A stretch of DNA of 62,289 bases, the filler included, from Hausera hauseri (taxonomy: Eukaryota): NCBI GenBank assembly GCA_046269625.1. It is 9 parts of 9 records of this genome, joined end to end, with 100 filler letters (N's around TTAATTAATTAA, not from the genome) between each part and the next. Parts side by side here need not be neighbours in the genome. Positions count along the whole stretch, not along the records: positions 42,997 to 48,989 come from JBJURY010156867.1; 8 more parts are not named here. The stretch is one strand, 5' to 3'. The position numbers and the translations under genes were made by a program. This document shows positions 4,750 to 61,066 of the stretch, piece by piece. The notes below the pieces were generated by a model. That model was not told where the DNA came from and did no database searches. It was given only the letters and a program-made list of their open reading frames with translations. The first letter of the stretch is position 1. Every line of letters starts with the position of its first letter.

Positions 4750-4880
4750 TCCCACATAACTATGTAATTTCGCTGCGTGTTTGTTTTTATTTTGTACGTG
4801 TGTGTGTCGTCAAGCTACATTGCAGTATAAATACTTGTGCTTCTTCTTCTTCTTCTTCTTTATTTCCATAAGATTATACA

Positions 4881-5309: not shown

Positions 5310-5409
5310 NNNNNNNNNNNNNNNNNNNNNNNNNNNNNNNNNNNNNNNNNNNNTTAATTAATTAANNNNNNNNNNNNNNNNNNNNNNNNNNNNNNNNNNN
5401 NNNNNNNNN
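5310..5409. other. Artificial contig spacer (also at 10502-10601, 15115-15214, 19707-19806, 30776-30875, 35094-35193, 42897-42996, 48990-49089)
   Basis: Identical N44-TTAATTAATTAA-N44 linker with stops in all six frames. Confidence 0.98.
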
Positions 5410-5677
5410 TGTGGCTAAATAACAAATTTTCGTTGTATTCCGAGCTGAAAAATAAAGTTCTGTTTTACGTTTCCTTATTTCGGCTGTTGTTTTCAGTGAC
5501 AACATTCACAGAAAACCTCAATCATTTCATTCTGGAGATTCACCAAAATGTGGGCACCACATCACCTCCTGCTGACAAAGCTAGGTTGCCTGGGGGGACC
5601 CATCAGGGGTCATCTGGTAACCAATATTTTTCTCTTCGCTGTTGTTGCTTTTTCTGTAACTTGGCGATGTCCTGATT

Positions 5678-6412: not shown

Positions 6413-7122
6413 TTTAATTAAGAATGTAATAGAAATAAATCCAAGAAGATAACAATAAAAGATATTCCTTTATTCAATGAGAATTTATCAATAAGAGTTC
6501 AGTTTGCCGGAAGGAATATTGAAGAAGTTTGAGATGATGTAACTGAATGTTTAAACTGAATGAGCGTAACCAGACGGTTTAGCAGGACTGATATGGAACT
6601 GCTCTGAATATCCAATAATACACGATGATACATCGATGATAAGGTTTATCGGAGCATTATTGTGAACTAAATAATACCGTCTACTTGGTAACTTCTGGGA
6701 TAGTTCATTTATGAATGTTTCATAACCATCTTGATTAAAATCTCCAGATTGGGCTTTGAAATGAATTGGGCTTTCATTTGTACAGTAAAAAGTTTTTTAT
6801 AGATTCCGGCGAAAGATCGAGCTGTGCCAGCGACCATAGTTTTGAACCAACTTTTTCGTTAAGTAGAGTTGTTTGTACCCGAACGACATTGAGTTTTCTA
6901 ACCGTTTCCAATTGTTCTTAGTCATTTAGATTTGATTGAAATCGACGCATATCCGATAATTTGATCATCAACGGATCTTGATCGGGCACAAGCCGTGTCC
7001 ACGACCGCAGCACCACATCACCCGCCCCCCCGTTGGAGAAAAGAAATTCTGTAGTGGAAAAAGAATGATGAAAATAATACGAGTGACAACAACGAATCGC
7101 AACAAGAAATAAAGCTCGGTTT

Positions 7123-7870
7123 CTATTCAGTCTTATTACGGGTTAGGCGTTGTGTGCCATCAAAGAATTTTTCTCTACTGTACGTATTGAACGTTACTCT
7201 GTGTGGCTTACTTGATAGATTTGTACTGGGTTGTTGAGCGATGTTTTGTGATGGGGGTGATAGCGAAGATGAGTCAAGCAAGAAAGGAGATGAAGGTTGT
7301 GAGCATGTTGACGGAGATAGAGACGAGACGGATAGAAAAGATGATGATAATTGAGTGTGATTGAGTAGTGATTTTTGCAATGGCGCAAAATCGTTTAGAA
7401 AGTCAGTAGAGGTGTTAGCTGAGTCTGAATTAAATGTAGAATGGTTATCTGGAATGTCTTTAATGAAAAAAGCAGGCTTTAGATTTGAAATGTGGACGCT
7501 GTACGGTTTATCTTGGCGTAAAATTGTTGTTGTGTGAGATGAAAGATTTAGCAGTTTGTACGGGCCAACGTATTGAGGTCTAAAACCTGAAGGAGATTGA
7601 TCTTTTAACCACACAAACTTGGCGAAGTTTAAATCCTTTGGAATGTAGGATTTGTTATGATTAAAGAGGCGACAGAATGAATCTGAGTTGACCTCGACGA
7701 AGTGAGATTGTGCTGCATGAACGTTTTCGTCTGCAGGATTGTCATAGAGATTAGAAAGCTCAAATAAGGCTCTAATTGGAGTCCCAAAAAGTGCTTCGGC
7801 TGGAGCGCAATCGGTAGTGGTCGAAGGTGTGTTGCGCCAACCTAGTAGTACAAAAGGTAGAATGGACGTC
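7123..7870 (-). pseudogene. Integrase C-terminus (GPY/F module) with Ser-rich tail, out of frame with pol
   Basis: LPFVLLGWRNT, APAEALFG, YVGPYK, VHISNLKP. Confidence 0.85.
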
Positions 7871-10096
7871 CTGTACATCTTTACGCATTGATGGCCAAAT
7901 GACATAACGCTGAAGCATGCGAAAAGTAGCATTCGAACCTGGATGATGAAGTGAATGAGTATGAACAAAAGCTGGCTTTTGAAAGGGTGGTGCTAGGATA
8001 ACCTTTTTATTGCCTGTCATAGACGTGTCAAAAGCTATTCCATCAATGATTTCGTAGGATTTGAAAGAACTGAGTAACTCAACAGATGGTTGATTGGCCT
8101 TTAAGACTTTAGATGAGAAAATCGGTTCAACTGTAATGGATCCAACCGACCTCGATAGAAAGTCAGCTACCAAGTTATCCGTGCCTGAGATATATTCCAA
8201 AGTAAAACTGAACGTTGATAGGTATGATATATGTCTCTCTTGCCTTGGTGATGGCTCTTTTAACGACATGATGTGCAGCAGAGGCTTATGGTCAGTTTGA
8301 ATGACGAATGGGCGAGAGAGAAGTAAGTGTTTGAAGTGTTTTACTGCCAGAACTATGGCGAGTAACTCGCGATCAAATGTGGAGTAACGGCTCTCAGGTT
8401 GAGTTAATTTCCTAGAATAAAATTCTAATGGCTCGTCGACGCCATTAGAGATCTGGTGTAGTACAGCACCAGTAGCTGTGGTTGAGGCATCGGTTGTAAG
8501 AATAAGATCTGCCTTGGGTTTCGGATAAGCCAGTATTTCTACGGTTTTAAGACCTTCGCGCAAATGATCAAACTTGGTTACCAAATCAGGAGTCCAGTGG
8601 ATCAACTGCCTCTTTTTTCCTGAAGATAAATGTGCGAAAGGTGCCGTAAGCTCAGAGCAATGAGGCACGTATTTGTGGATGAAATGGAGTGTGCCTAGAA
8701 AACTTCTCATGTCAGTGGTAGTTGTTGGTAGAGTTATGTTCTTTAATTGTTGTAGTCGATCCGGTTGTGGAGAGTGGCCGTTAGGAGTGATGACGTGGCC
8801 TAGAAAATTAACACGATTTTGAAAGAAATGACACTTGGCGAAATTGACTTGCAAATTGCTATGATGTAATCTGTGAAAGATAACACGAAGGTGTTCTTGA
8901 TGTTGTTTGACAGACGTAGAGGCAACTAGTATGTCATCAATATATGGATGAGCAAAATCTAGGCCTGAGAGTACAGTATCAATGTGCCGTTGGAAAGTTT
9001 GAGAGGCACTACGCAAACCAAATGGCATAAAGATATATTCGTAAAGGCCAAATGGAGTAATGATAGCAGTTTTTGGAATATCATCAGGTGCAACAGGAAT
9101 CTGATGATATGCTTTATGCAAGTCAATTGTGGAGTACGTGTTAGTGTTGGTAAGGCTGTGCAGGATGTCATTTATAAGCGGTAAAGGATATGCATCCATG
9201 ACCGTTAGATTATTTAACTGCCGATAATCACCGCATGGTCTGTATGTGCCATCTTTCTTCGTCACAACATGCAAAGGCGAAGCCCATGGTGATTTGGATC
9301 GTCGAATAATGCCCGCTTTTTCGAGTTCGTTGAACTCTGATTCAACGGCTTTTCGTCTACGAGGTGACAGTGGTCTGACCTTTTGTTTAATAGGTCTTTG
9401 GTGTTCGGTGACTATGTGATGATATGTTGCAGAATGCGGTTTGAAATTTATGTCCTTCTTAAGAGTGGGGGAAAAAGAAGTCTTAATGTAGGATTTAAGA
9501 TCAGAATCTAACGATGAGAATGATGACGGCATATCATTATAAGAGTCAGTTGCTGTAATCGATGTAGAAATACTAGATGCTTCATTAACGACATTTGATT
9601 CAGCCGAATGTGTCAAAATTGATTTGTTCCCACTTGACGAGATTGAAAATATAGATGAAATGTTAAATGCGTTGTTGTCAACCGATGAACAAGATGTCGC
9701 ATTGACATTTGAACAAGCTGAGGAAGACAAAGTTTTCGACTGGTCTTTTGGTAAGTATTTGTTAGAATTGGCAGTGAAGTCTCTGCGCAGAATGCATTTA
9801 TGCCTGCAGTCGACTAACAAATCGTACGCAGCCAAGAAATCGGAACCTATTATGGGCGATCTGGTGTTTGTTATGTGAAAATTCCAGGAAAATTTTCCTG
9901 GTAGATTGTAGAATGAGAAGGACAGCTTTGTGGTACCTACAATGTTCAAAGGTTGACCAGAGGCTGTGAAGAGTAGAGGAGAGAGAACTGTGTTTGATGT
10001 AGGAGCGAAAGACAAAGGAAGAAGTGATAAGTCAGCTCCTGAATCAATAAGGAAATCTATGTGTGATGTCGCTCCAAATAGCAGATCAGCTTTCAA
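7772..10096 (-). CDS. pol: Pol: aspartic protease, reverse transcriptase, RNase H, start of integrase zinc finger
   Basis: FLIDSGA, SPWASPL, RPCGDYRQLN, MPFGL, YIDDILV, TTDAS, DRELLA, TDHKPL, ADFLSR, HSLHHPG. Confidence 0.95.
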   Translation of the reverse strand: MKADLLFGATSHIDFLIDSGADLSLLPLSFAPTSNTVLSPLLFTASGQPLNIVGTTKLSFSFYNLPGKFSWNFHITNTRSPIIGSDFLAAYDLLVDCRHKCILRRDFTANSNKYLPKDQSKTLSSSACSNVNATSCSSVDNNAFNISSIFSISSSGNKSILTHSAESNVVNEASSISTSITATDSYNDMPSSFSSLDSDLKSYIKTSFSPTLKKDINFKPHSATYHHIVTEHQRPIKQKVRPLSPRRRKAVESEFNELEKAGIIRRSKSPWASPLHVVTKKDGTYRPCGDYRQLNNLTVMDAYPLPLINDILHSLTNTNTYSTIDLHKAYHQIPVAPDDIPKTAIITPFGLYEYIFMPFGLRSASQTFQRHIDTVLSGLDFAHPYIDDILVASTSVKQHQEHLRVIFHRLHHSNLQVNFAKCHFFQNRVNFLGHVITPNGHSPQPDRLQQLKNITLPTTTTDMRSFLGTLHFIHKYVPHCSELTAPFAHLSSGKKRQLIHWTPDLVTKFDHLREGLKTVEILAYPKPKADLILTTDASTTATGAVLHQISNGVDEPLEFYSRKLTQPESRYSTFDRELLAIVLAVKHFKHLLLSRPFVIQTDHKPLLHIMSLKEPSPRQERHISYLSTFSFTLEYISGTDNLVADFLSRSVGSITVEPIFSSKVLKANQPSVELLSSFKSYEIIDGIAFDTSMTGNKKVILAPPFQKPAFVHTHSLHHPGSNATFRMLQRYVIWPSMRKDVQDVHSTFCTTRLAQHTFDHYRLRSSRSTFWDSN

Positions 10097-10182
10097 CAGA
10101 AAGACTGCAGAGGCGGTGTTGAAACGGCCAGTAGTTTAAACGATATTGCCTGTACCAGAATGTGCCGTGGCATCTGGTGGCA

Positions 10183-10501
10183 TTATTGATTTTTTGAGGC
10201 TGGTTGATAGGAATAGGAGGAATGGTGAGTGCGTGGAGGAGAAGAAAATGGAGAACCAGAATTCCTTTTATAATATTTACATCCTGGCACGCATGACCTA
10301 GCCTTGGACTGGTATTTTGCGTGATAGATGCAAATCGGATTGTCTACGGCATATCGTACATCGTAGAATGGACAACCTAAAACACATTTCCGTGCATCTC
10401 TGCGGAATTTGTTGTGATAGAAACAGGCCATTTTACCCTGTCTGGATTTTGAACGAGAAGAGTGCCTAGACAAACTGCGATAGAGAGAAGTGCGATTCCC
10501 C
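10183..10501 (-). CDS. gag: Gag C-terminus with doubled CsRn1-type Cys/His motif (partial)
   Basis: CFYHNKFRRDARKCVLGC and CIYHAKYQSKARSCVPGC resemble the CxYHxxF...CxxxC gag motif of the CsRn1 clade. Confidence 0.75.
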
Positions 10502-10982
10502 NNNNNNNNNNNNNNNNNNNNNNNNNNNNNNNNNNNNNNNNNNNNTTAATTAATTAANNNNNNNNNNNNNNNNNNNNNNNNNNNNNNNNNNNNNNNNNNN
10601 NCTTCAACTTGTGTTTTTACACACCTCCTGTTTGTGTAGAGCTCATGTTTGAGTGTGAGAGTGACCTGTTCTGCTGCGGAGTTTTCCATGCCCATCTCTT
10701 GCATGTAGAGATGAAACTGAGGTATTTTATGTGGTGATGGTGTGACCCAATGTCAAGTTCAACAAGACAGACTCAACCTGACCATGTTTTTCCACTAACA
10801 GATACTGAAGGGCTCTTCCTGACTGAGTCCTCGGTAGGATCTTTTGGTGTTTTACTTTTTGGGCAGATGGTGTTGGACTGAGGAGGAGAACGCTCCTCCA
10901 TCCTCTTTCACTTTCAGAATTCTTTGCTCATGGTCCTATTTCCCTCTTGGGCCTTGTTTGGTCTACTTCCTTTATTTTCTAG

Positions 10983-11127
10983 ACTGCTGGCCTTAACACC
11001 ACGGATAAGGAAATGGAAGTTCTTCAACTGAGAAATGTGTCTTTTGATGACGCTGGGGAGTATACCTGCTTGGCGGGCAATTCTATCGGGTATTCTCATC
11101 ACTCTGCATGGTTGACCGTTTTGAAAG
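10983..11127 (+). CDS. fgfr1: Vertebrate FGFR Ig-IIIc exon (145 nt), FGFR1-like
   Basis: ttttctAG|...|GTatca; [48 protein letters not shown] closely matches FGFR1 IIIc as recalled ([48 protein letters not shown]). Confidence 0.93.
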
Positions 11128-11835
11128 GTATCAGTGGTTCTGTCTCTTTCTTACATTTTCAAAATTTCCCTTTTTCTGTGTCACCATGTATTTTAATGTA
11201 TTTCAAAATATACACAAGTTCATATAGTATTTTAAATTGAAATGGTGACTGTAAGATTTATCTCGTTTTAAAAATGAAAAATGAATAAATCTTCTCTTTC
11301 CTTTCACATTTATAAATTTTCAATTAATTTTTTACTTTTCAAATGTATTGAATCTTATAATTTCTCCATATAATTTAAAATACTATATAGAATTGACAAT
11401 AAGATTAAACTAGTTTAATACTCTATAATATTAACCTTTTTGTTTGTCCATAATGTTTGCAAATAATTATACTTTGAAATACGTAAAAATATATACAAGA
11501 TACAAATCAAAAACATAATAAAGCCTTTTATTTAATGAATGCGGCTATATAACAAATTACAACAATTTCATTTACAGCTGTTGCATTTCGGGATGAAATT
11601 TAAATTTCTTAATTTTCCGCGGGCGTTACTTATTGGACAAACTGTAAGAAGAAATGTCCATAACTAGTAGATTGATACAATAAACCCATTGTGACTCGAT
11701 TAGTGTTTAAAATGATTTTTGACGATATAGATATTCATTAAAATGTATCAAAAAACAGAAATAAACTATCTACGATACACCTAGCTAAAGCTAATTGTGG
11801 AAATAAATGCAACATAAAACAGAAGCCATTTTTAC

Positions 11836-12348
11836 CTTTCTCGTCTGATTTTGAATCACTTTGTACAGGTTTTTCGCCTTCGGTTCCCGGTGTACTTGCA
11901 CCGGTATCCACATTGATCTGTGATTCGATTGCTGAATCATCCACATCCATCGCCATATCGGTTTTATCGGAATCCGTAATTTTATCTGAATTTGGACGTT
12001 TTTTTCGAATGGCTCTCGGAGGCCCGACATTTTGCATAAATTTGTTGACATTATTATTATTATTATTGTTGTTTGTGGATGAGTTAAATATCGGAGGTAA
12101 CGGAGTTGATTGATTCATGAGAGAAAATGGCATATTCAATGTTGGCGGAACAGCGGGATTATTCATGTTAAATGGAAATTGATTGTTTACGTTCCACTGA
12201 GGATTCGGAACATGATTTCCCGTCATATCTTTTTGAGTACTCAACAGATTTGGAAATGTGAATGCATTTGTAGCGGCGTTCATAGCATTTTGAATTTGCT
12301 TGCTGATTTCTTCAGCATTAACATTAAGTGTCGGTAAAAGACTGGGAG
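11836..12348 (-). CDS. Probable internal exon of a low-complexity N/P/M-rich eukaryotic protein
   Basis: taattAG acceptor at 12349-12350, AAAG|GTAAAA donor at 11835, open frame with polyN and RKKRP (NLS-like). Confidence 0.45.
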
Positions 12349-25495: not shown

Positions 25496-28001
25496 TATGC
25501 CTTAAAGTATTAAATTGTAGACAGAGGTGTAGAATCATAAACAACACTCATAGGCATTTACACCCCTCTTCCACACAAAATACAAACTTAAGTTCGTCGT
25601 TCATTTATAGCCGGTCACGATCAGATATGTAGGGATAAATAGGGTGTCGTGGTACTTACGGGCAATAATTACTTTGAAGATAGTAATAGGTGAGAGATGA
25701 TCAGGGCATGCTAGGGCTTGGCACCAAAAAAATGATAAGATATATCAAATTAACATTTAGGGGATTCGTGGATCACCACGAGTTTCAAGTGAATTTTATG
25801 AAAATGCCTATTTCAGCGACATTTTTGTTTCTTCTAACAACAAAGGGCACTGACAGAAGGTAGGTTAGGTGGATACTCGGGTAGTAAGGGGATATAATTT
25901 ATGTGAAAGTTATTTTGATGACGTGTTTATATAAATAAATTTTGTATGTAGTATCAGCATTGTTGAGACATATTTATGTAGTTAGATGGAGTATGTAACA
26001 GCAGCATTCTTTTGATGACGTCACAATTTTGATGATATAATTTACATTTAATTAATTACATATTTGTATAGTTAGGTTGTTGAGGTAAGAAGTGCGGTGG
26101 TATTTTGTCGTGTTTAATGTAGGTTTCAACATTATGTGCCTGGCTGGTCATATGAGGAAGGGGAAGATAACGACACTGTTAGGGGTTGTTAGGAGTATTA
26201 GTTATTAGCAGCAGGTCATCTGTCGTATAAGGACAGGGAAGTTCTCAGTCTTGTTAGGTTAGTCATTATTGTCATGTGTTCTATTATTACGCATATTAGT
26301 CGTCATCATGTGCCATGTCGTACAAGAAAGGGAAAGATAGCAATATCTTTGTTAGGGATATTAGTACTTTGCATGTCGGTAAATTTTTACGTTGGCAACT
26401 TTTCATGTCGACCATTTTTTCTTGTCGGTAACTTGTCATGTCGGCCATTTTTTTAGGTCGACCAATTTTTTCAGCAAGATAAATTTTCATCTCAGCTATT
26501 TTTACATGCCAACACACTTTAGATGTCAGCGCCAAGCAACGTTGTTAAGGGTATTAGACATCAGTAAGTGACCTGTTGTATTAGGAAGGGAAAGTTAACA
26601 GCGTTGTTAGGGCAGCCATCATCATGTGTACTGTTGTCAGGGTATTAGTCAGTAACATGTACCATGTCATATAATCAAGGGGGAAGATGGCAGCAGTATT
26701 AGGGATTGTTAGGGATATAGTTATCAGCAGGTGACCTGTCGTATAAGGAAGGGGAAGTTATCAGCGTTTTAGGTTAGTCGTCGTCATCGGGTGTCCTGTT
26801 GTTAAGGATTCTAGTCATCAGCATAACCTTGGCCATATAAGGAAGGTGAAGATAACAACATTGTTGGGTATTAGGCATCTGGTATTACGATCATCATCAT
26901 TTTTTATGTCGGCTACTTTTTATGTTGGCCATTTTATTTCAGTTCGGTAATTTTTCATGTCATCTATTTTTTCCCATGTCAACAACTTTTCATGTCTGCC
27001 ATTGTATGTCCGCCAAGAAGTGTTGTTAGGTTAGTCATCAGCAGCAGGTGGCCTATCGTAAACGGAAGGGGTCGTTAACAACGTTGTTAGGTTAGTCATC
27101 ATCATCATGTGTCCTGTTGTTAGGTGTATTTGTCAGCATCGTGTCCTGTCGTATAAGGAAGGGAAAGATAGCCGCGTTGTTAAGGACATTAGTCGTCAGC
27201 ATGCGCCATGTCGAATAAGGAAGGGGCAGATAGCAGAGTTGTTAGGTATTAGTCATCTGGTTTTCTTTTCATCAGCAGGTTCATGTCCAAAACCTTTTTA
27301 TGTAGACCTTTTTTCATGTTGGTAATTTTTTCATGTCGACAACTATTCGTGTCTGCGGCCATTTTCTCACGACGGCCATTTTCTCTTGTCAATCAAATGA
27401 TCATGTCGATCTGAAAAAAGTAACCGACTTTAAAAAAAATGGCCGATAAGAAACGGTGCTGTCTTCCCTTCCTTATATGACGACTAATATGCCTAACAAT
27501 ATAACATCTGATGGTGAATGACTAACCTAACAATGCTGATAACTTTCCTGACCTCATATGACAGGCCACCTGCTGCGGTTGACCAATATAAGCACGTCAT
27601 CAAAATAAGTTTCACAGAAATCTCCCCTTACTGTCCGGGTATCCACCTAACCCACCTTTTTTCAGTGTTCTATGTTGTTACAAGAAAACAAATGTTGCCG
27701 ACAAAGGCACCTTCATAAAATTTGCATGAAACTCGCCGTGATCCTTGAATCCCCTAAATATTAATCTGATATCTTTTATCATTTTTTGGTGCTCAGCCCT
27801 AATGTGTCCTAAACATCTCTCACCTGTCGCTATCTTCAAACTAATTATTGCCCGTGTGTAACGACACTCTATTTATCCCTACATATCTGCTTGTGACGGG
27901 ATATAGACGAATCAGAAACTTACATTTGTGTTGTGCGTAACAGTATAGAGTGTTCTTTATGAATCTACACTTCTGTCTACAATTTAAAACTCTAAGGCAT
28001 A
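25496..28001. mobile_element. Non-coding foldback/MITE-like element with about 430-bp imperfect terminal inverted repeats and internal tandem subrepeats
   Basis: 25496-25932 is the diverged reverse complement of 27586-28001 (e.g. CAGATATGTAGGGATAAATAG / CTATTTATCCCTACATATCTG); internal TAAGGAAGGGGAAGAT..CA units and TTTTCATGTCG minisatellites. Confidence 0.8.
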
Positions 28002-42996: not shown

Positions 42997-43133
42997 GATG
43001 TTGTACTTAAGGTGTCTGAACTATTGGTAGGGCTAAGATTTTCTCTATCTAAATCGATCTCGTTAATTGCTGTTATCTGGCTCTGTGTTAATCGTCCGCG
43101 GGATCGAGTATTGTACTGGTGTCCCTGCGCCAT
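42997..43133 (-). CDS. Start of a possible gag-like ORF, truncated by the contig end
   Basis: MAQGHQYNTRSRG; YNT/LRSR-like motifs are common at gypsy Gag N-termini; only about 45 codons are visible. Confidence 0.4.
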
Positions 43134-43168
43134 TGTTATTAAGTAAGACTAAATTGTTACCCATTTTA

Positions 43169-43728
43169 TTATATATATACAGTACATGCTTCATCTATGG
43201 GCAATTTGCACATTACACATTTCGAATCCAAAGAATGTACAAGAGTGCAGTTTTTACAATGAATAATATGTCCACACGGTAAGTAAATTGTGTTTGCTTA
43301 ATTTTTCTTACAGCTTATACAAATCCAAATGGTACGAGTAAGGTCTATGCATCTTTCTTTTATTTCTTCCTCTTTTTCTTTTAATGTTGAAATCAAACAT
43401 TGAATTCCGTGATAATAATCGTTATCCATTAACTGCATTTGGTGATTATTTTCGGCAATGCTTCATATTCTGCATTCTCATCAGTTTTAATAGCGATCAT
43501 CGTCAAATATTTAGAATATCCCAATTCAGTTATCCTGTCGAGTAATGGGTTATTATACAATCTATACCATTCGTATGTTAATTTAAATGGTTGATTCTTT
43601 ATCGTCATTACCTGAATTGTCCATTCTTTAAGGCTGACCAGGGTCATATTGTCAGTAATTGAGGGTTCTACAATAAATTTATTCAATTTTATCACAAAAT
43701 TCATATAAGCTAAATAACATTTATTCAA
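43169..43728 (-). pseudogene. Decayed protein ending in an IAP-type C3HC4 RING (RING part absent from the ORF track)
   Basis: 43429-43169 reads CISCKKN*ANTIYLPCGHIIHCKNC...CVMCKLPIDEACTVYI*; internal TAA at 43298-43300; overlaps the stop of the upstream 99-aa ORF (TAATG). Confidence 0.75.
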
Positions 43729-43746
43729 TTACAACTATATTAATTG

Positions 43747-44969
43747 TTAATCCAAGTCCATATCCATCAAAGTTATTCCACTATTTTCCTCTGAAAATTG
43801 GAAGTATGCTACTCGCCTTTCGGTAATACTCCTACAAACTGGACAGTTCGTTGTTTGATTCGAACAATTTTCACATGTTTTCAGGTGACAGCAAGGTAAG
43901 AAAATAACCTGTGCTACGTCCACATAGCAAATCACGCACTCCAAATCGCGAAGATAAAAATTATCAAGAATATTTCGTTCAAGTTCTCTTTCTTTCTCCG
44001 GAGGAATAAAATTTAAACTTTGACATAATTTGAATACATTTGGTAACCAGTCTGGTTGAGTTTCTGTCCGATATTTTATATACTGTAATATATTTTCTCG
44101 TTTAGTAGGATGTTTTGATAGTACCGATGTAGCCACTGGACTATCTTGATAACATTCATATAGTTTTCCGATATTAAATTGTATTCTGCATTGTCTCTTG
44201 GTGTGTTTATCGAAGATTCTGTTTACTGAGTATTCGCACTTGTTGGTATGTAATATTTTTGGACATCGTTGATCAAGGTTTTCTAACCAATACGTTTCTT
44301 GTAAGCATATAGTACATTTGACATACTGTTTTTCTTCCTTAGATATCAATATTAGTCCTTCTTCGGCTAAATGTTCGATCTCTCTTTTTCCATTGAAAGT
44401 TAATTTTCTCTTTTGTACTGTGTTTGAAATCCAATATGCATTTTCTTCCGCTGTATTATCCGTTGAGTAAATTACCTTTACCGACACTGTTGCGTTATAA
44501 TTCGTATCCTTGTCAAGATCAGGTCTTTTGACAAATGTATCTATGAGCGGTATATCACTGACATTGAGATTTAATAAATAAGGGCAAGTGGCATGCGATT
44601 TCTTATGTGTTTTATTTGGTCGATTTTTCGTTTGTTCATATTGGAATTCTCCTTGGCAATAAATGCATTTAATCTGTCCTGTTATAGTTCTGAATAACCC
44701 GGTTTTGGCATATGCTTGCGCTAGTTCGTCCGGAATAGGCGAATTTGGGAATTTCAGGAACGATATTGTTTTGTTTTGTGCATCTCTCATGGAGTTATCC
44801 AGTACTATAGCTTTGGAGTAGCTTACCAGTCTTTTAATAAATGATGCCGGTCCGAATTGTCTATTCTGGTAGTGCAATATATATTGCGCTATATTAGATT
44901 GTGCGGGTTTAACATATTCGCACTGTTTCGGTGTTCGGAATTCGTATTCTTTGACCTTTGTTATTTCGG
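43747..44969 (-). CDS. iap: Inhibitor-of-apoptosis protein, two BIR domains plus C-terminal RING
   Basis: BIR1 SF..FP...AKTG...KCIYC...H...CPYL; BIR2 RKLTF..LAEEG..VKCTIC..W..H...C; RING CVIC..VIFLPCCH..CENC..CPVCR. Confidence 0.9.
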
Positions 44970-45019
44970 CTAAAATGTAATATATCCAATAACATCGCCA
45001 AATTTACATAAATATTTAT

Positions 45020-45330
45020 TTATAAATCCTTTACAGTATAATAAGCATTTTTATATCTAAATAATGTATTGTTAATGCGACATTTTGGGCATGAAATCTC
45101 GACTGCAAACCACCCTTTTATGCATTGTCGGCAGAATTGGTGTTTACATATGGTTAATTCTATCGGATCCATCGAGCATTCGCTCAAACAAATGGAACAC
45201 TCTTTTCCTAAATAAGTTAAAGTTCCCTTTGGATCATATATGGAATAACTGTTGTCTGCTGTTGTAGTGTAACGAAATATTGAAAATCCGTAATCCAACA
45301 TGTTCGTTCTATTCATCCCGAGGTAAAATC
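45020..45330 (-). CDS. Small C3HC4 RING finger protein
   Basis: CSICL...CKHQFCRQCI..W....SCPKCR. Confidence 0.9.
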
Positions 45331-45375
45331 CTTAATAAGTCAAAATGAACGACTTGTAATTAATTTTATTAACAA

Positions 45376-45816
45376 TTAATTTTCATAATCTAAAAATGTA
45401 TTTAGTTGTGGATTTCTCCACTGTTCCGGCCAACTGCCGTCATCCTCATCAATTACCAATACTATAGATGGCCGACTATCAATATTCAAATATGTGATTA
45501 TTCCTTCTGCAATGTAAAAGTCTACTGATTCGAGGCAGTAAGGGCACCATTGACAAGATCCCAAATACTCCAAGATACACGGCCGACAAAACACATGGCG
45601 ACATGGTAAGATAATCAGGTTATCTGCCACTAATTTAAGGCACACCCAACAAAATGTGCAGGCTCGTCGACAACAAGGGCAGTTACTTTGTTCGTTCAAC
45701 CAAATGTCGATGCAAAGCTGACAATATGTGTGTCCACATGGTAATGTTGTCCTTTCATTCGTCATTCCTTCAAGACAGATGGGGCAAATGTCTGTAATCA
45801 ATAAAACTAACTTCAT
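45376..45816 (-). CDS. Tandem double RING finger protein with acidic tail
   Basis: CPIC..LPCGHTYCQLC..W..CPCCR followed directly by CWVC..LPCRHVFCRPC..CPYC; SIVLVIDEDD tail. Confidence 0.92.
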   Translation of the reverse strand: MKLVLLITDICPICLEGMTNERTTLPCGHTYCQLCIDIWLNEQSNCPCCRRACTFCWVCLKLVADNLIILPCRHVFCRPCILEYLGSCQWCPYCLESVDFYIAEGIITYLNIDSRPSIVLVIDEDDGSWPEQWRNPQLNTFLDYEN

Positions 45817-45847
45817 TAACTATTACTATATTTCATTACAAATTTTA

Positions 45848-46080
45848 TTAACCAATTAATTTATTACTTTCCTCTACTTCACTATCCGACAGGGCACAAA
45901 CAGGATATATTAAAAAATAATTTTGGTCCATTGTCATTGTACTCAAATTAGCCTCTTCTTCACAATAAGCACATTCGAATATGTCTTATTGGTGGCTCAG
46001 TTTCTCAACGAAGTGGCATAATGGGCAGGGATTTTCTTCCTCGTTATAGGTTTCCGAAATCCTTTTGCATACAATGCACC
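45848..46080 (-). pseudogene. CxxC zinc-finger ORF with an internal stop (absent from the ORF track)
   Basis: CIVCKRISETYNEEENPCPLCHFVEKLSHQ*DIFECAYC; TAA at 45986-45988. Confidence 0.55.
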
Positions 46081-46220
46081 CTAAATTCGATATAAGTTAA
46101 AATTTATTATTGGATTGATTTTTAATTCTTCTTTAATTATAATAAGCTATTAGCATTTTTCTCTCATTCATTTATACTATTCATTTCACTTTAAAACAAT
46201 TAAGATAAATATTTATTATC

Positions 46221-46507
46221 TCAAATTGCCATTTGTACAAGTCCGTTAGGACCGACTACATATAACGGAGTTGGGTCTATTATTCTATCTTCCTGTTCTT
46301 CTTCCTCCTCGTCAAAGATCACCACTGTAGTGACTCCCAAACAATTATAGCTACTCGCCTTTCTCCTGCAAAAGTAGCAATTTTGTTTCCTCGATAACCA
46401 TTGATCGGCACACCTGGTACACATGATATGTGTACACCTGAGTAACGCGTAACGCAATCCAAGATCATTGTAACATATTGTACATTTTGTACGTCTGGTT
46501 CCAATAT
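46221..46507 (-). CDS. C3HC4 RING finger protein lacking an ATG before the domain
   Basis: KCTICYNDLGLRYALLRCTHIMCTRCADQWLSRKQNCYFCRR; TVVIFDEEEEE tail. Confidence 0.85.
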
Positions 46508-46591
46508 CTAATAAAATATAATCAATGTTTACTTGCGGATAATAATAATAATACTATAAATCACAACAAAATGCTCAGCCCTCGAGTCTTT

Positions 46592-46609
46592 TCCTCACTC
46601 GGGGCACCA
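46592..46609 (-). promoter_or_regulatory. Primer-binding site complementary to elongator tRNA-Met
   Basis: Minus strand TGGTGCCCCGAGTGAGGA matches, at 17 of 18 positions, the complement of the animal tRNA-Met(e) 3' end as recalled (TCCTCACACGGGGCACCA), including CCA. Confidence 0.75.
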
Positions 46610-46800
46610 GTTTATATGTTCGCACAGGGGTCAAAACTAAACAGTTGACCTTTAACGCGTGCCAACATATAAAGGATAGCTTTGAGAATATAGTTAGAGT
46701 AATTTAAAAGAGTTTATTTATCTTCTATATTTTCTTCTAGAATTGCTACTCATGACTATATTTGCATACGTCAACATACGAGTCCTTATAGGAAGGTTCA
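46609..46800 (-). promoter_or_regulatory. LTR-like R/U5 region (5' boundary unresolved)
   Basis: On the minus strand TATAAG (46790-46785), AATAAA (46718-46713), then ...TATAAACT overlapping the TGG of the PBS, as in AGT...ACT-type gypsy LTRs. Confidence 0.5.
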
Positions 46801-48562
46801 TACGTGTTAACATCTTTCCTTACCTTTTTTCCTTACCTTGATTGCTTATTGTTCCTGATTAGAGTTTAAACCTGATCGACATTGACATGAATTTTAATCC
46901 ATTGCGTCCTTGACCATTGTTGGAGAATAATGATATTCGGTACAACGTTAATCATATGCATTCCATATAGTTCTAATAGAAATAAGAGTATTTTATTTCT
47001 GATTATCCATGCAATGATATGGAAGAATGGTGAAGTCCATCTACTTGTTAGGATTATAACAACCACCAAAATATAGTGGTCATTCAATATTCAATCATGC
47101 AAACCATACCAACAGATTAAAAGACAAGTCAACGTTTATATAAAATCCGGAATTAGTTTCCATATTTAACCGGAAAAAAATCATAGATTACAGATCCTCT
47201 TCATCTCCGATCACATCTCACCTTTAAACCCCTATAATTCGAAATTGATTGTCTCAATATGGTTAGTTGTTTGTACTACCGTTCGTATATTTAACAACAT
47301 CCTACGACATTTAAACTCTAATACAATCAATATCAGGTTTGAGACAGCTCAGTAACTCCGTACATCAACTCAACACTATAATCCATGCCGTTATATCAGC
47401 TGGCAAAATAATCTTACTCATAATCTCGCGCTAAGTCGCTAATTATTAATCAACTCCAAGACAAGCTCTCTAAATTCTATACTAAATTATAATACATGTA
47501 CAAAAATATTTTAAGTGACAACACAAAATTTAAATGAGGTATATATATATATGCACTGGTACGTCTGACTTTTACTAAACGAATTTGCCACCAACCTTGA
47601 CTACAAACTCCAGTACAGACACTGCACCATTTCTACCATTGACCATCAGACGTTAGGTGTCATGATCTTTCAGCAGAGTATTATCATCGCATCGACTTAT
47701 CTGTATTGATTCATACATATTGATGACCAAAACTCATTGTTGCATCACAATATACACCTCTATATTACCGAATATGATATTTTAGAAAAGATAAATAATT
47801 TATCAATACTCAACTCANNNNNNNNNNNNNNNNNNNNNNNNNNNNNNNNNNNNNNNNNNNNNNNNNNNNNNNNNNNNNNNNNNNNNNNNNNNNNNNNNNN
47901 NNNNNNNNNNNNNNNNNNNNNNNNNNNNNNNNNNNNNNNNNNNNNNNNNNNNNNNNNNNNNNNNNAGCTGCTTCTGTAGGCTCACACGTGCACACAGCTC
48001 AATCAGTAACTGAACCTGATCAGCATTTAACCAATCGATTTGTGAAACAGAGATCTAAAACATGCAGATGTGGGCAGAGTTCTCTATTCCTAATGCTAAG
48101 CAGGGGTCTATACTAACGCAGGGCTGCATTAAATTACATATGTAGACAATGCTAGCCCTTGTTCCCCTGGACCTAGTGTGACGAAAGATGGAAGCACTGT
48201 CAAAAGGTTTCCTAATGATATACAAAGGTGACATGTAATCTAAGATGTCAACCAAATTGTGCTTTCATCATGTGGTTCCATAATTTAATCTGTCTGATGA
48301 ATGTCCTGGCATCTGAAGGACTAATCTGTTTCAAACCATCATAAGATATTGAGTTACCACAAAGTCTATGGTTACCAAAACAACTATTTGATATTCACAA
48401 AGCTCAAAGCTTGAGTCAGCTAATTGTTTATTCTTTTTTTAAAAGTAGTATACACCCAATGTCTCCATTCATTATAATATTTATTGGATTTGCTATAATT
48501 TTTAGCCATGAATTTTTCCAAATCTATTAAAAAGGAGAGGCAAATAGCATTTATACTGGTTT

Positions 48563-48850
48563 TTACAGGAAGCTTAAATTTTGTACAAAACGCTTGAATT
48601 TTCTAAAAAGCTGATTGGAAGCAATATCCAGATGATCAACCGTAATTATGCGACCATAATCAATGTTCATATATTTTACATATTTCGGATCATTGCAAAG
48701 ACATATACAATCACTATTAGTAGAATTTCTACAGAAGGAGTTATAATTATAAATTCTTCGACCTAGGGGTCTAGGATATTCATAGACCTTATTAATTGTT
48801 GCATTAATATGCCTGTTTTTGCATTCACGTGCAACACAAGGAACGCCCAT
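48563..48850 (-). CDS. Possible THAP-like N-terminus (DNA-transposon related)
   Basis: MGVPCVARECKN...YP resembles the THAP start; the canonical W and CxxHF are not clear. Confidence 0.35.
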   Translation of the reverse strand: MGVPCVARECKNRHINATINKVYEYPRPLGRRIYNYNSFCRNSTNSDCICLCNDPKYVKYMNIDYGRIITVDHLDIASNQLFRKFKRFVQNLSFL

Positions 48851-49299
48851 TATTTTCGTTTAAAATTAACACAAAAAACGATTGATTAACATTAGAAGAA
48901 CTGGCCTCACTCTCAAGTATGCAAATCAGTGACGTTTGAGGCGAACCCTTCAATTGGCTGCATTTTGTTCCTTTTATAGTGTAAGATCGNNNNNNNNNNN
49001 NNNNNNNNNNNNNNNNNNNNNNNNNNNNNNNNNTTAATTAATTAANNNNNNNNNNNNNNNNNNNNNNNNNNNNNNNNNNNNNNNNNNNNCCACGGTACTG
49101 TAATAGTACAACAGTGCATGACGTTGATTATTGCCATAGTAGAATAAAGCAGTACTATGGCGTCACAGCGGTATGCGGTAAACGGACCTATGTTTGTCAC
49201 GGTTGTTCTATAGTTGAAGCACAAATCAACTATAAATATTTTATAACCAGCACAAAGACCACTTGTAACAATTTCAGCGGTCCAAAAAGCAAATAGTAA

Positions 49300-52225
49300 T
49301 TGACGCAACAAACAGCAGTATCAGCAGCAGCAGCAGCAGCAGTAACATCAACAACAACATAAACAGCAGGAACCTGACATTTCCATTACTGTCAAGTACG
49401 ATCTAAACAGATCGTACATGGACATAAAAGTTGACATGATACCACAAATTTCAGTACAGTTAAAGCATGACCGTCCAGTGTACGCAACCGGTTGGAATTA
49501 GAAGTGAAGAAATTCCAACACAACCACCAATACCACTGAGACGTGCAGTATTATACACTGGCAGAATTTGAAAATTTGAAAGGTGATATGAAACAGTGGC
49601 ACCTATCACATCAAGTCGAACCGTATTCCGACAATTTTATTGCCCTTGTATGTGAAAATGTCAATGAAAAAATCGCCATCTGTACCGAAAAGGGTAGAAG
49701 CTGGCGAACTATAAAAATTGTCACTCTCGACTTTAACATAAAAAAGTTCAGTGATATAATTTACTTGTCTGTACGATCATTCATACCGACACCTGAAGCT
49801 CTGAAGAACTCTTATGCGGTATTGAAAATAAAAAATACTGACGATGAATACTGTTTTATTCACAGTGTTCTGGCCGCATTAAAATATAAGGAAGTGGACA
49901 GACATAATGCATATCGTCCAAATCAGTATCGGCAGTATTTTTACGATTTAGACTTTGATGAAAGCTGGATGTCCATGAAACTAAAAACCATTCCGACGTT
50001 TGAACAACGTAACCGGACTCTGTCAATTAACATGTTTTGGTACAACACATTCGTAGGAATACCAGGAGAAGAAGAGATTTACAAGAACCCCATGTGGACA
50101 TAATCTATAGAAGTTGGAACCCGAATGGACGCCCAATAAATTTGTTGCTGTTAGAGCAAAAGGAGGAGGAAAAATTCCATTACGTGGCCGTGACAAATTT
50201 TGACAGACTGTTGTATATGGAACATGACCAATTCATCAAAAAGCGTATATGGTGTAAATGGTGTCCTATATGCCTGCATGGATTAGGTCGAAAACAACAT
50301 GGGAGAAGCATGTGACTGTGAGGTCAAAATTCTGCGGGAACAGCGATGTACGTCATGCCAGTCAAAAAGGAGCTGAGATTCAGTATGTGATGAAAATCCG
50401 ACAGTCTGGCGTATGTGGTATATGCAGATGTTAAAGCCGTTCTACCACGAAACAATGAATAAAATCAAAAGCACATTTCAATCGCTGTCGGTATGTTGGT
50501 AGTCCCAATAAAAGCCACTGGTCAACCGCAGTATTACGTTTTCCACGGCTGGAACTGCATCCGTGATTTCTTGCATCAGTTGGAACGCACCCTGGTACGG
50601 TAATAATAGCAATAAAGCCTTGATGCAGACAGATGAATATGAACCATTTGCGGCTTGTGCCACAAAATATTACCGTTCAAGGCAAACTAACGGCTCGTAC
50701 CAGATCGATATGTCGGAGACGCATGTAATTAATGCAATTTGGCAAGGCGTGTGAAACCGTTCATACAGGTGATCTTTCAGAACTTCAGGGATTATAATTG
50801 TCACCATATTTTGAAATGGGCAATAAACGGATTTCCGCACTAGGAACTATCCATAATTCCGACTACGATGGAGAAATACCTGTAACTGTCTGCTCGTGTA
50901 AACCGGTTCCAGGTACTCTTCCTTCATTCATTCAATTTCTAAATGAATCATTGGCAAAGCTGGTAAATGCCTTGCCAGATGTACCGATAGCATTGACGCA
51001 GTTCCTCGCACATATCCCATGCAGCAAAGGAATATTTCCGTATGACTTTGCAACATCGTATGAGTAACTCCAGACATCATAGGAATTACCGCCGCAATGG
51101 ACAGGTATCGCAGTGAATGAATACCGGAAAGCACAGAGGTGTTTGACAGAACTAGGCTGTAAAAACATGTTGGATTACATGCTCCAGTATCTTAAACTGG
51201 ACATGTACTTATTAGACGATGTGTTCCAAGCGTTTCAAGCGAAAGTGTTGACTGAAGATAGGCTGGAGCCACTCAACGTTTATTGCATACTGGGAATGAG
51301 TTGGGCGTCAACAAGCACCAGGTCAGTTCTACCGATACCATATCACTGCGGTATATTGATATTAATAACCTGAATGGCTGGACCCTTTCGCAACCATTGC
51401 CGTACGGTTCATTCGAATGGGTTGTCGATGGACAAGATCTGGACGACATAATGGTCAACGTATCACCAGCATACACGACAGGCTCAGTCGGATACCTGAT
51501 AGAGGTCGATTTCGTGGCACAAGATGAGCTGCATGACGTTTTGGACGATTTACCGATCGCACCATTTAACCAATGTCCGCCAGGCTCAAAAGTGAAGAAA
51601 CTTCTAATGACGCATGAACCGAAGCTGAATTACGTTGTCCATTCGCGTCTGCTACAGTTCTACATGCATCTCGGTATACGCGTCACACTGCTGCATCGTG
51701 CAATCCGATTTGCTCAGGCTCCCATATTCAAGGCGTACATAGATGGAAATTCGAAGAAACGAACCGCAGCTTGTAGAAAGTTCAAAGAGGACTACTACAA
51801 GCTGAAAAACAATTCCCTGTACGAAAAAACAGTGGAGGATCTGAAAAAGCGGTTCAATGTACGTCTATGCAATAGCGAAAATCGGTTTGTTACGTACATG
51901 GGTAAGGCGCAGTTTCGGCGGTAAATGCACATTGGCGATGGATTGGTTGCGGTGCTGTTAAGCAGAAAAGAAGTCGTTCTGGACCGGCCAAGTTACATCT
52001 GACAAGTGGTATTGGACCTGAACAAATTGCGGATGTATGAGCTACAGAAGCGGCAGAAGGAGGAAGACAATCAGTGGCTGTTGTATCTCAAACGATCATC
52101 CGATCAATTGAACACCAGCTGTACACAATAACTAGTGCGAAAGTCGCTTTGTCATGTAACAATGATAAGTGAAAGTGGGTGGGACGAAATAAGAGTTGGG
52201 CGTATGGACATTGGCGGCTGAAATA
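49300..52225 (+). pseudogene. polB: Protein-primed family B DNA polymerase, copy 1
   Basis: CFIHSVLAAL, NLLL...HYVAV, FLNESLAKLV, KGIFPYDF, YLKLD..LL.DVF, YIDINNL, KLKNNSLYEKT; the motif C region is missing. Confidence 0.9.
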
Positions 52226-58839: not shown

Positions 58840-61066
58840 TCAACTACAATATTACGTTTTTCATGGATGGAACAGCGTTATCGATTTCCTTCATCAGTTG
58901 GAAACAATAGTAGAAACAGAAATCGCATCCTGGTACAGAAGAAATAGCAATAAGCCTTCGATGTGGACAGATGAAGATGAACGCCTGACGTTTTCAGTCA
59001 CAGATAAATGTTACCTGTGCAACAAAATATTACCGTTTGATTCACAACAACGGCTCGTACCGGATCACGGCCATTTCATGGTCGACATCTCGGAGCATCA
59101 TGCAATTCGTGCAATTTGGCAAGGCGTGTGAGGCTATTCCTGCCGGTGATTTTTCATAACTTCCGCGGTTATGATTGTCACCATATTTTAAAATGGGCCA
59201 TAAACGGATTCCCGCACTGGAAACTATCCACAATTCCAACAACGATGGCGAAATATCTGTCACTGTCTGCGTGTATTAACCGGTTCCAAGGACGCTTCCT
59301 TGATTCATTGCAGTTCCTAAATGAATCTCTGGCAAATCTGGTAAATGCCCTGTCAGCTGTGCCGCTAATATTGACTTAGTTCCCGACACATATTTCACGT
59401 AGAAAAGGGATATTCCCGTATGACTTTGCGATATCGTGCGAGCGGCTCCAGACGACAGACGAATTACCACCACAATGGCCCGGTATCACAGAAGAAGAAT
59501 ATTACAAAGCGCAATCGTTTCTGGCAGAGTTTGGCTGAAGAAACCTGTCGCAGTACATGCTTTAGTATCTGAAATTGGATGTATACTAATTAGCCAATGT
59601 GTTTCAGACATTTTAATATAAAGCGTTGGAAGAAGATAAGCTGGAACCACTCAACTTTTACTCAATACCCGGAATGAGTTGGCGTCAGTTCTGGTGTCAC
59701 TGGATCGGGATATCGAGCTATTGCAAGACCCGGAAATGTACCGAATGTTTGATGTTAGTATTCGTGGCGGCATGACATATGTCAACAAGCATCATGTAAC
59801 CAGTGCTGATACCACATCACTGTTGTATATAGACATTAATTAGCTGTACGGCTGGGCGCTTTCACAACCCTTGCTGTACGGTTCATTCGATTGGGTACTT
59901 GACAAACAGAACCTGGACACAATATTGGAAAATCTGACGAGAGCAGACACAACAGAAGACAGCTCAATCGGATACCTGATGGAAGTCGATCTCGTGGTAC
60001 CAGATGAGCTGCATGACTTTCTAGATGAACTGCCGGTCGCACCAAATAGCTAATGTCCACCGGGCTGGAAGGTGAAGAAGCTGCTTATGACGCATGAACG
60101 CAAGAAAAATTACATAGTTAATTGGCGTCTGTTGCCATTTTACATGCAATTGGGTGTACACATCACACGGCTACATCGCGCAATCCGATTCATACAGGCT
60201 CCGATATTCAAGCCATAAATCAGTCGAAATTCGGGAAAACGAGCTACAGCTTGTACGATGTTTGAAAAAGATTATTATAAACTGAAAAACAATTCTCTCT
60301 ACGGAAAAACAGTAGATAATCTGAAAAAGCGGCTCAATGTACTCCAATACAATATCGAAAAGCAGTTGGTCACGTACACGAGCAAGGAACAAGTCAGGCG
60401 ATCAATGCACATTGCCGATGGATTAGTTGCCGTGTTTTTAAACAGGGAAGAAGTCGTGCTGGACCGGCCAAGTTATATGGGACAAGTAGTATTGGACCTG
60501 AGCAAGTTGCGGATGTATGAGTTGCAACATTACAATTTAGCACGTTATCGGCAAATGTTCGACGGCGACGGATGCAGAATCAGTATAATTGCCGATGATA
60601 CAGATCGTTTTTTTTGGAACTAGAAAGCGTCAATCGCGAACAACTACTGCGGCAAATGATGGCCGACGGATTATTGAATACGTCCAGTTGCCCACAGAAT
60701 CATCCATTGTACAGCACCACCATTACAAACAAAATCGGCTGCTTCAAGGATGAAAGTGAAGGTTGGGTTCAGTATCGGGAATGAGTATTTCTAAGGCCAT
60801 AATATTATAGCCTTTTAACTGACTGTGGACCAAAAATGCGCGCCAAAGGAGTTCCGTTGACCCAGCCGGAAATAAATCACGTTGATTATCACCGTATTTA
60901 TGAAGAAGAAGGACAATCAAAAGCTGTTGCGTCTCAAACAATCATCCGATCAATTGAGCACCAGCTGTATACGGTGACCAATACAAAAGTCGTTTTATCA
61001 TGCAATGATGATAAGCGAAAGTGGGCGGGGCGAAAAAGAGTTGGGCGTACGGACATTCGCGTTTGA
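58840..61066 (+). pseudogene. polB: Protein-primed family B DNA polymerase, copy 2 (N-terminus lost)
   Basis: CYLC..DH.H (EndoVII-like), PVIFHNFRGYD, FLDSLQFL, IRGG, YIDIN, KLKNNSLYGKT, DTD, RAKGV, DDKR. Confidence 0.92.

Follow-up and report, generated by a model that had tools for sequence, protein, structure and literature searches.

How does a retroelement express six short open reading frames (ORFs) that stand in a row before a gag-like ORF, when two of them lack an in-frame start codon ahead of their cysteine motifs? This question is raised by contig JBJURY010156867.1 of Hausera hauseri (assembly GCA_046269625.1), which provides positions 42,997 to 48,989 of the window, i.e. of the whole stretch of 62,289 nucleotides that was analysed. 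All features described here lie on the minus strand. Six units, each laid out as acceptor, ORF, stop and poly(A) signal, sit between a tRNA-Met primer-binding site (PBS) on the 5' side and the gag-like ORF on the 3' side of a retrotransposon that is multi-copy and likely of LTR type. From this layout we infer, with confidence slightly better than even, that one element-encoded leader is cis-spliced to the units, which would serve as alternative terminal exons. A first-pass annotation of the sequence had proposed one leader with alternative 3' exons; phase-1 acceptors, ATG-less units and the PBS speak for this proposal, whereas the donor that it named and the single LTR promoter that it assumed do not hold up equally well.

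The PBS (46592..46609) shares 16 of 18 bases with the input tRNA-Met PBS in PMC1084362 and 17 of 18 with the clones ending in A from that paper, in a comparison made by eye. The ORF at 42997..43133 likely represents the start of gag, judging from its position; it has a strong start context, is open to the contig end and gave no Pfam match over the 45 codons present. The AG in front of it is weak (rank 101 of 203 AGs) and in phase 0 to it, and the leader therefore does not explain the expression of gag. A Ty3/gypsy LTR retrotransposon would have two LTRs, a target-site duplication, and gag and pol in the order PR-RT-RH-IN; a second LTR copy was sought within the window and none was found, and the contig ends at 42997. 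A fusion glycoprotein, which Burro/GYPSM1 elements have in frame between gag and pol, is absent from the cassette contig, and a piece of this kind was seen elsewhere in the window, on a different contig.

RING fingers are predicted by Pfam in five of the six units. Unit 1 (46221..46507) encodes an intact RING-HC finger in 94 codons (PF13920, E 5e-9), and unit 2 (45848..46080) is a Cys-rich ORF, which an in-frame stop (45988-45986) interrupts and for which no Pfam family reached an E-value below 0.05. Unit 3 (45376..45791; 137 codons) carries a double RING (PF13923 in two stretches, E 6e-18) and unit 4 (45020..45330; 102 codons) a single one (PF13639, E 1e-8). Unit 5 (43747..44969; 406 codons) is IAP-like and combines a BIR domain (PF00653, 24.1 bits at a cut-off of 22.9) with a C-terminal RING (PF13920, E 9e-11, 41.8 bits), the pairing by which an IAP is recognised; a single-sequence fold of this unit had a pLDDT of 31 and provided no usable structure. 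Unit 6 (43169..43667) consists of an unassigned N-terminal part and a C-terminal RING (PF13920, E 2e-9 with the stop entered as X), and is disrupted twice, through a frameshift in the region 43460-43430 and through a stop codon (43300-43298). Four RING or BIR-RING units are intact, and one RING unit and the Cys-rich unit are broken. Based on the domain families, the units are predicted to encode ubiquitin ligases and one inhibitor of apoptosis, with the host cell as their target.

The six AG|NN sites at 46507, 46080, 45791, 45330, 44969 and 43667 were found as the first-pass annotation had described them, each 2 nt before the domain frame and each preceded by an AT-rich stretch. All six lie at the edge of an AT-rich spacer, where the GC content rises from 15-25% over the 40 nt ahead of the AG to 30-42% over the 40 nt that follow, and the GC change-point falls within 5 nt of the AG in four of the six units; clear branch-point words precede only four acceptors. 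Scoring of the sites had been proposed as a check. When all AGs from the preceding stop to the first required codon were ranked with three scoring models, which were set by hand once the sites had already been seen, the candidate AG came out on top in 5, 6 and 5 of the six units, or in 4, 6 and 5 with a longer range for unit 5. The AT-rich model places all six within the top 11 of 203 AGs, the first model between the 6th and the 44th rank. A join in phase 1 opens 94, 137, 102, 406 and 78 codons in units 1, 3, 4, 5 and 6, compared with at most 62, 9, 6, 19 and 7 codons in the other phases, and is thus the sole entry to the domain frame. It had been cautioned that sites picked by eye in AT-rich DNA may be chance matches. 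The AGs exceed chance modestly, and their shared phase alone is modest evidence, with p values that depend on model and null and range from 0.004 to 0.053 against a null of one third allowing any common phase, and from 0.03 to 0.18 when the phases seen among the candidate AGs serve as the null. Recent tandem duplication was rejected as the source of the common phase, the RINGs being 29-39% alike with two short DNA matches between them; an old duplication may lie behind it.

A scan of the frame from the preceding in-frame stop to the first Cys codon confirmed the absence of an in-frame ATG in units 1 and 2. In unit 1, the first ATG falls inside the RING, and in unit 2, the first Cys codon starts 2 nt after the AG in a frame that is open only 6 codons further upstream. 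The earlier view of which units need splicing had overlooked that units 3 and 6 each have an ATG in frame upstream of their AG (45816 and 43704, respectively); unit 3 has a further in-frame ATG at 45765, after the first CxxC. Units 4 to 6 carry their own ATG 5-20 nt past the AG, which in unit 4 is located at 45316, behind an acceptor that immediately follows an in-frame stop, and which in unit 5 is present in sister copies.

The sister copies were taken from run X1, of which 3,856 contigs, behaving as DNA, were aligned. The cassette is multi-copy, with bin depths of 69-12,167 compared with 5.7-6.8 for contigs with zero differences, depth being a rough guide; the gag-like ORF reaches a bin depth of 11,206. 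None of the differences listed, 40 of 497 substitutions and 12 of 18 indels, touches an acceptor AG. Of the 12 indels listed, nine fall into the roughly 15% of the sequence that is not part of a coding unit, and the remaining three, which are equal in depth and sum to 6 nt, lie between the AG and the first Cys of unit 1. Three indels (+1, +1 and -2) fall between the upstream ATG and the AG of unit 3 and may cancel out, and four contigs carry a 1-nt insertion between the upstream ATG and the AG of unit 6. Ten of 27 coding substitutions are synonymous and 13 are at third positions, counts that are weak, with 13 substitutions unscored. In unit 5, the 11 contigs that account for all depth there carry a start codon at codon 2. 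The 59 codons without ATG in the presented copy of unit 5 thus reflect decay of this copy, and their use as an argument for splicing (p 0.01) is undone.

Decay could explain the missing ATGs of units 1 and 2 as well, and it forms part of an alternative explanation, according to which the units are compact captured genes that begin separately, through internal promoters, leaky scanning or reinitiation, and the AGs are chance matches. The presented copy has indeed decayed, as seen from the broken units 2 and 6 and the lost start of unit 5, near-cognate codons precede the first Cys in units 1 to 3, and the p value for the shared phase can be as high as 0.18. However, among the 40 of 497 substitutions listed, none gives units 1 to 3 a start past the AG, and the position of the first Cys in unit 2, in a frame so short on its upstream side, counts against a separate start. 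The spacers of 35-79 nt before units 3 to 6 and the gag-like ORF would also be short for promoters, and separate starts do not account for the composition edge at the AG in four of six units. Taken together, we consider separately started genes unlikely.

The poly(A) signals are stronger evidence for the cassette than the shared phase. AATAAA, which the first-pass annotation had overlooked, follows the stop in all six units at a distance of 1-24 nt from the stop's first base (46217, 45849, 45370 and 45020 in units 1 to 4, 43725 and 43683 in unit 5, 43170 in unit 6), where 0.70 would be expected with the stop fixed (p 1.4e-6); the coding sequence contains only three AATAAA in 2,939 nt. An AATAAA overlapping the stop would suit independent genes too. 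As far as sequence can tell, a signal in each unit suggests that every unit is an alternative terminal exon with a 3' end of its own, as opposed to 3'-coterminal messages of the retroviral type; on the other hand, the genome RNA would require read-through of six internal poly(A) signals.

The same arrangement is compatible with an operon that is resolved by spliced-leader (SL) trans-splicing of the host, in which poly(A) cleavage is followed by addition of the SL at the next AG and each unit uses its own start codon. The ORFs lie on the same strand, spacers are 35-140 nt long and AATAAA is followed by an AG; in parasitic flatworm operons, too, short spacers contain a poly(A) site and then an acceptor, and the spacing fits their 300-bp operon definition (excerpts of PMC12582326). 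An SL would also agree with the ATG close after the AG in units 4 to 6, with a stop in phase 0 whose codon overlaps the place of the first Met codon of units 3, 4, 5 and 6 (a post hoc observation), and with the fact that no strong family-wide donor was detected. However, the flatworm SLs reported in the same excerpts of PMC12582326 end in ATG and would join in phase 0, in frame with none of the six cassette sites: phase 0 yields 62, 27, 9, 5, 2 and 7 codons, all outside the domain frame. This would leave units 1 and 2 without a product and deprive unit 3 of its first CxxC. A common phase is not predicted by this explanation either, and we regard it as a serious alternative that is nevertheless improbable, to the same degree as separate starts.

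Cis-splicing from one leader, the reading that we favour, requires a coding leader in phase 1. The first-pass annotation had placed it at 46650..46668 (ATG to G|GTCAAC), and such a candidate is present there, 5' of the PBS and matched in phase; it comprises 6 codons plus 1 nt and ends at a weak phase-1 GT donor, whose use would have to be assumed. Read unspliced, it forms an 18-codon ORF with its stop just before the PBS. Its ATG and GT are both paired within a stable hairpin (46611..46673), a 15-bp inverted repeat with arms at 46611-46625 and 46659-46673 that are 93% complementary (fold of 46606-46680: -23.7 kcal/mol, z -3.4). Inside this hairpin lies a 51-nt TG...CA unit (46667-46617), likely either the end of an LTR or an LTR of very small size; this unit ends 7 nt before the PBS. 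A search of Rfam at the leader found nothing near the gathering score, and a tRNA gene was sought and none was found. That donor 46650 itself is the one used is rather doubtful: it scores -0.5, compared with 7.5 for 46837 and 46824 in a hand-set model, and three more phase-1 sites that have an open ATG and are equally weak as donors (46804, 46780 and 46626) occur inside 160 nt. The two strong AAG|GTAAGG donors were rejected as ends of a coding leader, as they have no open ATG and lie in low-copy DNA, and so was a donor at 46599 within the PBS, which a stop separates from the ATG at 46668.

The DNA upstream of the leader (46700..47817), which also contains a TATA-like sequence at 46791 and an AATAAA at 46718, is either element-specific U3/R or flank. 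Its depth of 7-20 compares with 5,900 in the bin 46539-46699, the sole high-depth bin 5' of the cassette, into which the ATG and GT of the leader fall; the high-depth block lies within 46589-46699, with approximate borders. The DNA upstream of the donor is hence not common to the family, and the claim that a single LTR promoter drives the array is left unproven. Several donors in this low-copy DNA, two of them strong, and the precedent of trans-splicing from a common exon to many 3' exons at mod(mdg4) (PMC6237743, in part) would allow real acceptors to be fed externally, by a phase-1 host exon at the insertion site or in trans, but a family with many insertions could hardly depend on the host exon of a single site, the strong donors lack an open ATG, and we consider this very improbable.

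If one leader is spliced to the units in cis, an ATG-bearing leader from the 5' end of the element would be joined to each unit, which would thereby act as one of the alternative terminal exons. The start codon for units 1 and 2 would come through a phase-1 donor located at 46650 or close by, which would supply it and join the remaining units in frame, and every spliced RNA would terminate at the poly(A) signal of its own unit. A weak, hairpin-held donor would leave sufficient unspliced RNA as genome and gag message. Since the donor would lie 5' of the PBS, the PBS would be removed from all spliced RNAs and the unspliced RNA alone would be reverse-transcribable; we propose that acceptors and spacers outlast retrotransposition because the spliced RNAs escape reverse transcription. 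None of the 13 DNA joints in X1 connects a donor to an acceptor, as expected if spliced RNAs go uncopied. In its most general form, any phase-1 module of acceptor, ORF and poly(A) signal placed between PBS and gag would run off the six-codon LTR-end leader without its spliced RNAs being copied, and an element with an RNA stage would thus retain six alternative terminal exons, a tentative idea that we put somewhat short of even.

Homologues provided little further information. Unit 3 has one true homologue, P0001 (45% identical), the sole independent one, which is annotated from a Met located after the first CxxC. A profile search with unit 3 gave 5,017 matches; the tail of unit 3 is matched by P0001 alone among the 150 best, none of which begins like the candidate leader. 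For unit 5, no homologue was found at near or shorter lengths, nor in viral contigs or phages, and viral contigs matched neither unit 3 nor the pattern of LTR end and PBS. A metagenome scan returned 80 loci, all of them generic RING matches; the PBS motif was absent from every one, and so were matches to the gag-like piece and to units 2 and 6a.

Introns are usually lost from retroelements, whose additional genes mostly take the form of gag-pol fusions or of one spliced ORF. The adenovirus major late unit has a common leader with alternative acceptors and poly(A) sites, but it belongs to a DNA virus, its leader is non-coding and there is no RNA genome. Several of the pX frames of HTLV obtain their start codon from exon 2. 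Complex retroviruses, to which the cassette had been likened, express accessory proteins by alternative splicing from one LTR, as described in parts of the literature on HTLV-1 pX (PMC3434621) and foamy virus (PMC5035957), and the major donor of foamy virus is situated within R, on the 5' side of the PBS (PMC5035957). The candidate acceptors fit this likeness by sequence, with a donor that is weak and one of several, whereas position and 3' ends do not: accessory ORFs of complex retroviruses are found at the 3' end and their RNAs share the 3' LTR end, but here the cassette stands ahead of gag, with a separate AATAAA for every unit. Drosophila mod(mdg4) likewise combines one common 5' part with a single one out of numerous alternative 3' exons (PMC6237743, in part); however, it is a host gene that uses trans-splicing and does not pass through an RNA genome. 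The ORF3s of LTR retrotransposons in bdelloid rotifers are typically expressed via spliced messages, like the proposal made here, but as a single ORF3 instead of a six-unit array before gag, and the main text of PMC5408684, as far as consulted, contains no mention of RING. A close parallel in content is Burro/GYPSM1, a giant gypsy-like LTR element of planarians that also carries RING, BIR, ubiquitin and apoptosis domains, and a Dugesia tigrina element likewise has an upstream accessory ORF (excerpts of PMC6431247). In Burro, these domains reside mostly within an ORF1 of 4,900-5,100 aa (PMC6431247), whereas here six separate short ORFs lie 5' of the gag-like start, divided by stops and spacers rather than fused into a giant gag polyprotein; the cassette works like Burro without being filed as Burro. 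The sections consulted of PMC6431247, PMC8532177 and PMC13238120 contain nothing on splicing of Burro accessory ORFs, and a literature search, with most subscription papers, the original Burro paper and supplements outside its scope, returned no description of this layout in any retrotransposon.

Annotation based on ATG codons would miss or truncate such genes, and P0001 is perhaps affected. If host SL trans-splicing were at work instead, the element would be a transposon exploiting this process, which would be notable too. Splicing from one leader raises the question of how genome-length RNA gets past six poly(A) signals and, if true, would show how retroelements acquire, exchange and separately dose many host-manipulating genes.

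The window chains short contigs through N-linkers, and the cassette lies on the minus strand of one such piece at 42997-48989, which includes a 148-N gap at 47818-47965 and contains, in 5'→3' order, low-copy DNA, a hairpin, a primer binding site (PBS, 46592-46609) identical in 16-17 of 18 bases to a published tRNA-Met PBS, six short ORFs and one more reading frame, which stays open on the minus strand for 45 codons up to the contig end. The hairpin, a 63-nt inverted repeat 5' of the PBS, was recognized by repeat search and folding; on the minus strand, 46673-46570 forms two adjoining hairpins, the second containing the PBS (z -3.35), and the 51-nt TG...CA unit might itself be an LTR, though an extremely short one. 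Pfam assigns a RING domain to units 1 and 4, a double RING to unit 3, BIR and RING to unit 5 and a RING to the broken unit 6, while the broken, Cys-rich unit 2 received no Pfam assignment. In X1, the one run that contains the stretch and a contig set behaving as DNA, 3,856 contigs match it, with a depth of 69-12,167 in the cassette bins. The bin that includes the hairpin and the PBS has a depth of 5,899, and the DNA upstream of 46700 one of 7-20. The element exists in multiple copies, over which, with contig depth as only a rough guide to copy number, the units appear unevenly distributed. One contig carries a DNA joint that omits 3,295 nt and connects 46591, on the side of the PBS, with 43295, on that of the unit-6 RING, from which cassette content may differ between copies. 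Two or three related copies of 46700-47817, 4-8% apart, are found in the run X1 records, and this region is either a variable U3 or flank. No RT is present on the cassette contig; PBS, TG...CA unit and multi-copy state are the grounds for the element's putative identity as an LTR retrotransposon.

The first-pass annotation had proposed that one leader is joined to six alternative 3' exons at phase-1 acceptors, and coordinates and phases of all six AGs (46507, 46080, 45791, 45330, 44969 and 43667 for units 1 to 6) were correct on re-checking. Every AT-rich spacer ends at such an AG, with a GC content of 15-25% before and 30-42% after it; the change-point lies within 5 nt of the AG in four units, and the remaining two have it 26-30 nt upstream. 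Splice-model scoring, which the annotation had recommended, placed the claimed AG first in five, six and five of the six units under three hand-set models. For the common phase, a uniform null gives p values of 0.004-0.053, and the observed phase mix of candidate AGs gives 0.03-0.18; the latter null is conservative because the claimed sites are part of the mix. Given ranking, composition edge and p values, the acceptor and phase signal is therefore real, yet not decisive by itself. None of the listed variants in sister copies, the other copies of the element in run X1, alters an acceptor AG (40 of 497 substitution rows, 12 of 18 indel rows). AATAAA occurs within 24 nt past the stop in all six units, against 0.70 expected from spacer shuffles with the stop held fixed (p 1.4e-6), and the repeating module is acceptor, ORF, stop and poly(A) signal.

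A frame check confirmed that neither unit 1 nor unit 2 has an in-frame ATG before its first Cys. In correction of the first-pass annotation, units 3 and 6 have in-frame ATGs 25 nt and 37 nt upstream of the AG; a 1-nt insertion in four sister contigs puts that of unit 6 out of the domain frame, and the unit-3 indels between ATG and AG may cancel out. An ATG follows the AG after 14 nt in unit 4 and 20 nt in unit 6. Read in phase 0 from the AG, each of units 3-6 reaches a stop codon that begins one base inside the position of its first Met codon (45765, 45316, 44964 and 43647, minus strand), an overlap that is partly expected because the base after an in-frame ATG is A in 7 of 17 cases. Unit 5 has no start for 59 codons in this copy; in sister copies codon 2 is a start codon, as read in 11 contigs that make up the whole depth at that place, which rules out the start-less stretch as splicing evidence. 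Decay can therefore mimic the pattern. Separate starts plus decay of this copy are an alternative explanation that we regard as improbable. Nine of the 12 listed indel rows lie outside the coding units; the remaining three, in one contig only, add up to 6 nt within the stretch from the unit 1 AG to the first Cys, consistent with coding constraint on unit 1 from the AG onward despite the missing ATG. The unit 3 homologue P0001 (45% identical, 756-nt source contig) is called, at the protein level, from a Met after the first CxxC, which would fit a start-less exon.

The proposed leader, from ATG 46668 to donor 46650, has the correct position and phase; however, this donor is weak (score -0.5). 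It is equalled by 46626, which shares the ATG, score class and phase 1, and by 46804 and 46780 (ATG 46813, phase 1), and donors 46837 and 46824 score 7.5 with no open ATG. Depth in run X1 (119 at 46588, 12.5 in the bin above 46700) favours a donor within 46589-46699, and therefore 46650 and 46626 remain, both with ATG 46668. This ATG and the 46650 GT are both paired in the hairpin (fold z about -3.4). The A of the ATG lies just outside the TG...CA unit within the longer inverted repeat, a place suggesting that the ATG is probably element-encoded. This ATG is preceded at a distance of 11 nt by an acceptor-like AG at 46679 (minus strand), which itself has a CTAAC word 13 nt upstream; the strong donors 46837 and 46824 could thus be spliced to the leader as a short internal exon.

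We lean slightly towards cis-splicing of one coding leader to six alternative terminal exons: the AG sites, the phase and the ATG-less units 1 and 2 argue for the one-leader proposal, whereas a single clear donor is missing. Splicing, donor, promoter and protein functions are those that we infer. Processing as a host spliced-leader (SL) operon would account for the spacing and for units 4-6. It is unlikely, as the ATG that ends flatworm SLs (available text of PMC12582326 and PMC9851317) matches the frame at none of the six AGs; these SLs are the flatworms' and may not be the host's. According to the available text of PMC12582326, flatworm acceptors are often common to cis- and trans-splicing, least so at operon-resolving sites, and by analogy a mix at the cassette acceptors is possible.

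Several other elements occur in the window. A retrovirus-like contig (35194-42896, plus strand) encodes a Gag p30-like protein with zinc knuckle, protease, RT, two RNase H regions, integrase and a TLV_coat env, has 77-nt direct repeats at both ends, and its pol is, among solved structures, closest to MLV-type RT (E 4e-126); it would be odd if the host is an invertebrate, and a vertebrate in the sample may be its source. Separated by about 8.4 kb, 50656-52189 and 59016-61035 are copies of each other that have diverged (73-82%), and one of them includes a Polinton-like fragment of protein-primed DNA polymerase B; 25496-28001 is a large degenerate inverted repeat with tandem units inside. At 19131-15412 (minus strand), a Monjiviricetes-type fusion glycoprotein shares a single reading frame, interrupted by stops, with an RT and RNase H that follow it, which is the Burro order in the available text of PMC6431247; between them is a protease-like stretch, judged by eye. 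Burro elements, as described there, likewise carry RING and BIR cargo; the cassette differs in that its cargo is in separate ORFs, and the element was therefore not assigned to Burro.

A literature search retrieved no description of such a layout in a retrotransposon. The expression logic of the cassette is akin to that of adenovirus late RNAs. It also resembles that of complex retroviruses and mod(mdg4), as far as the available text on these describes it; in contrast to all three, the cassette lies before gag and has one poly(A) signal per unit. The major donor of foamy viruses lies in R, 5' of the PBS (PMC5035957, available text). With a donor 5' of the PBS, the favoured leader splicing would leave every spliced RNA lacking the PBS, and unspliced RNA alone would replicate; none of 13 DNA joints in run X1 links donor to acceptor. 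For Gag, translation would begin at the strong start of its own ORF, by a route outside this leader.
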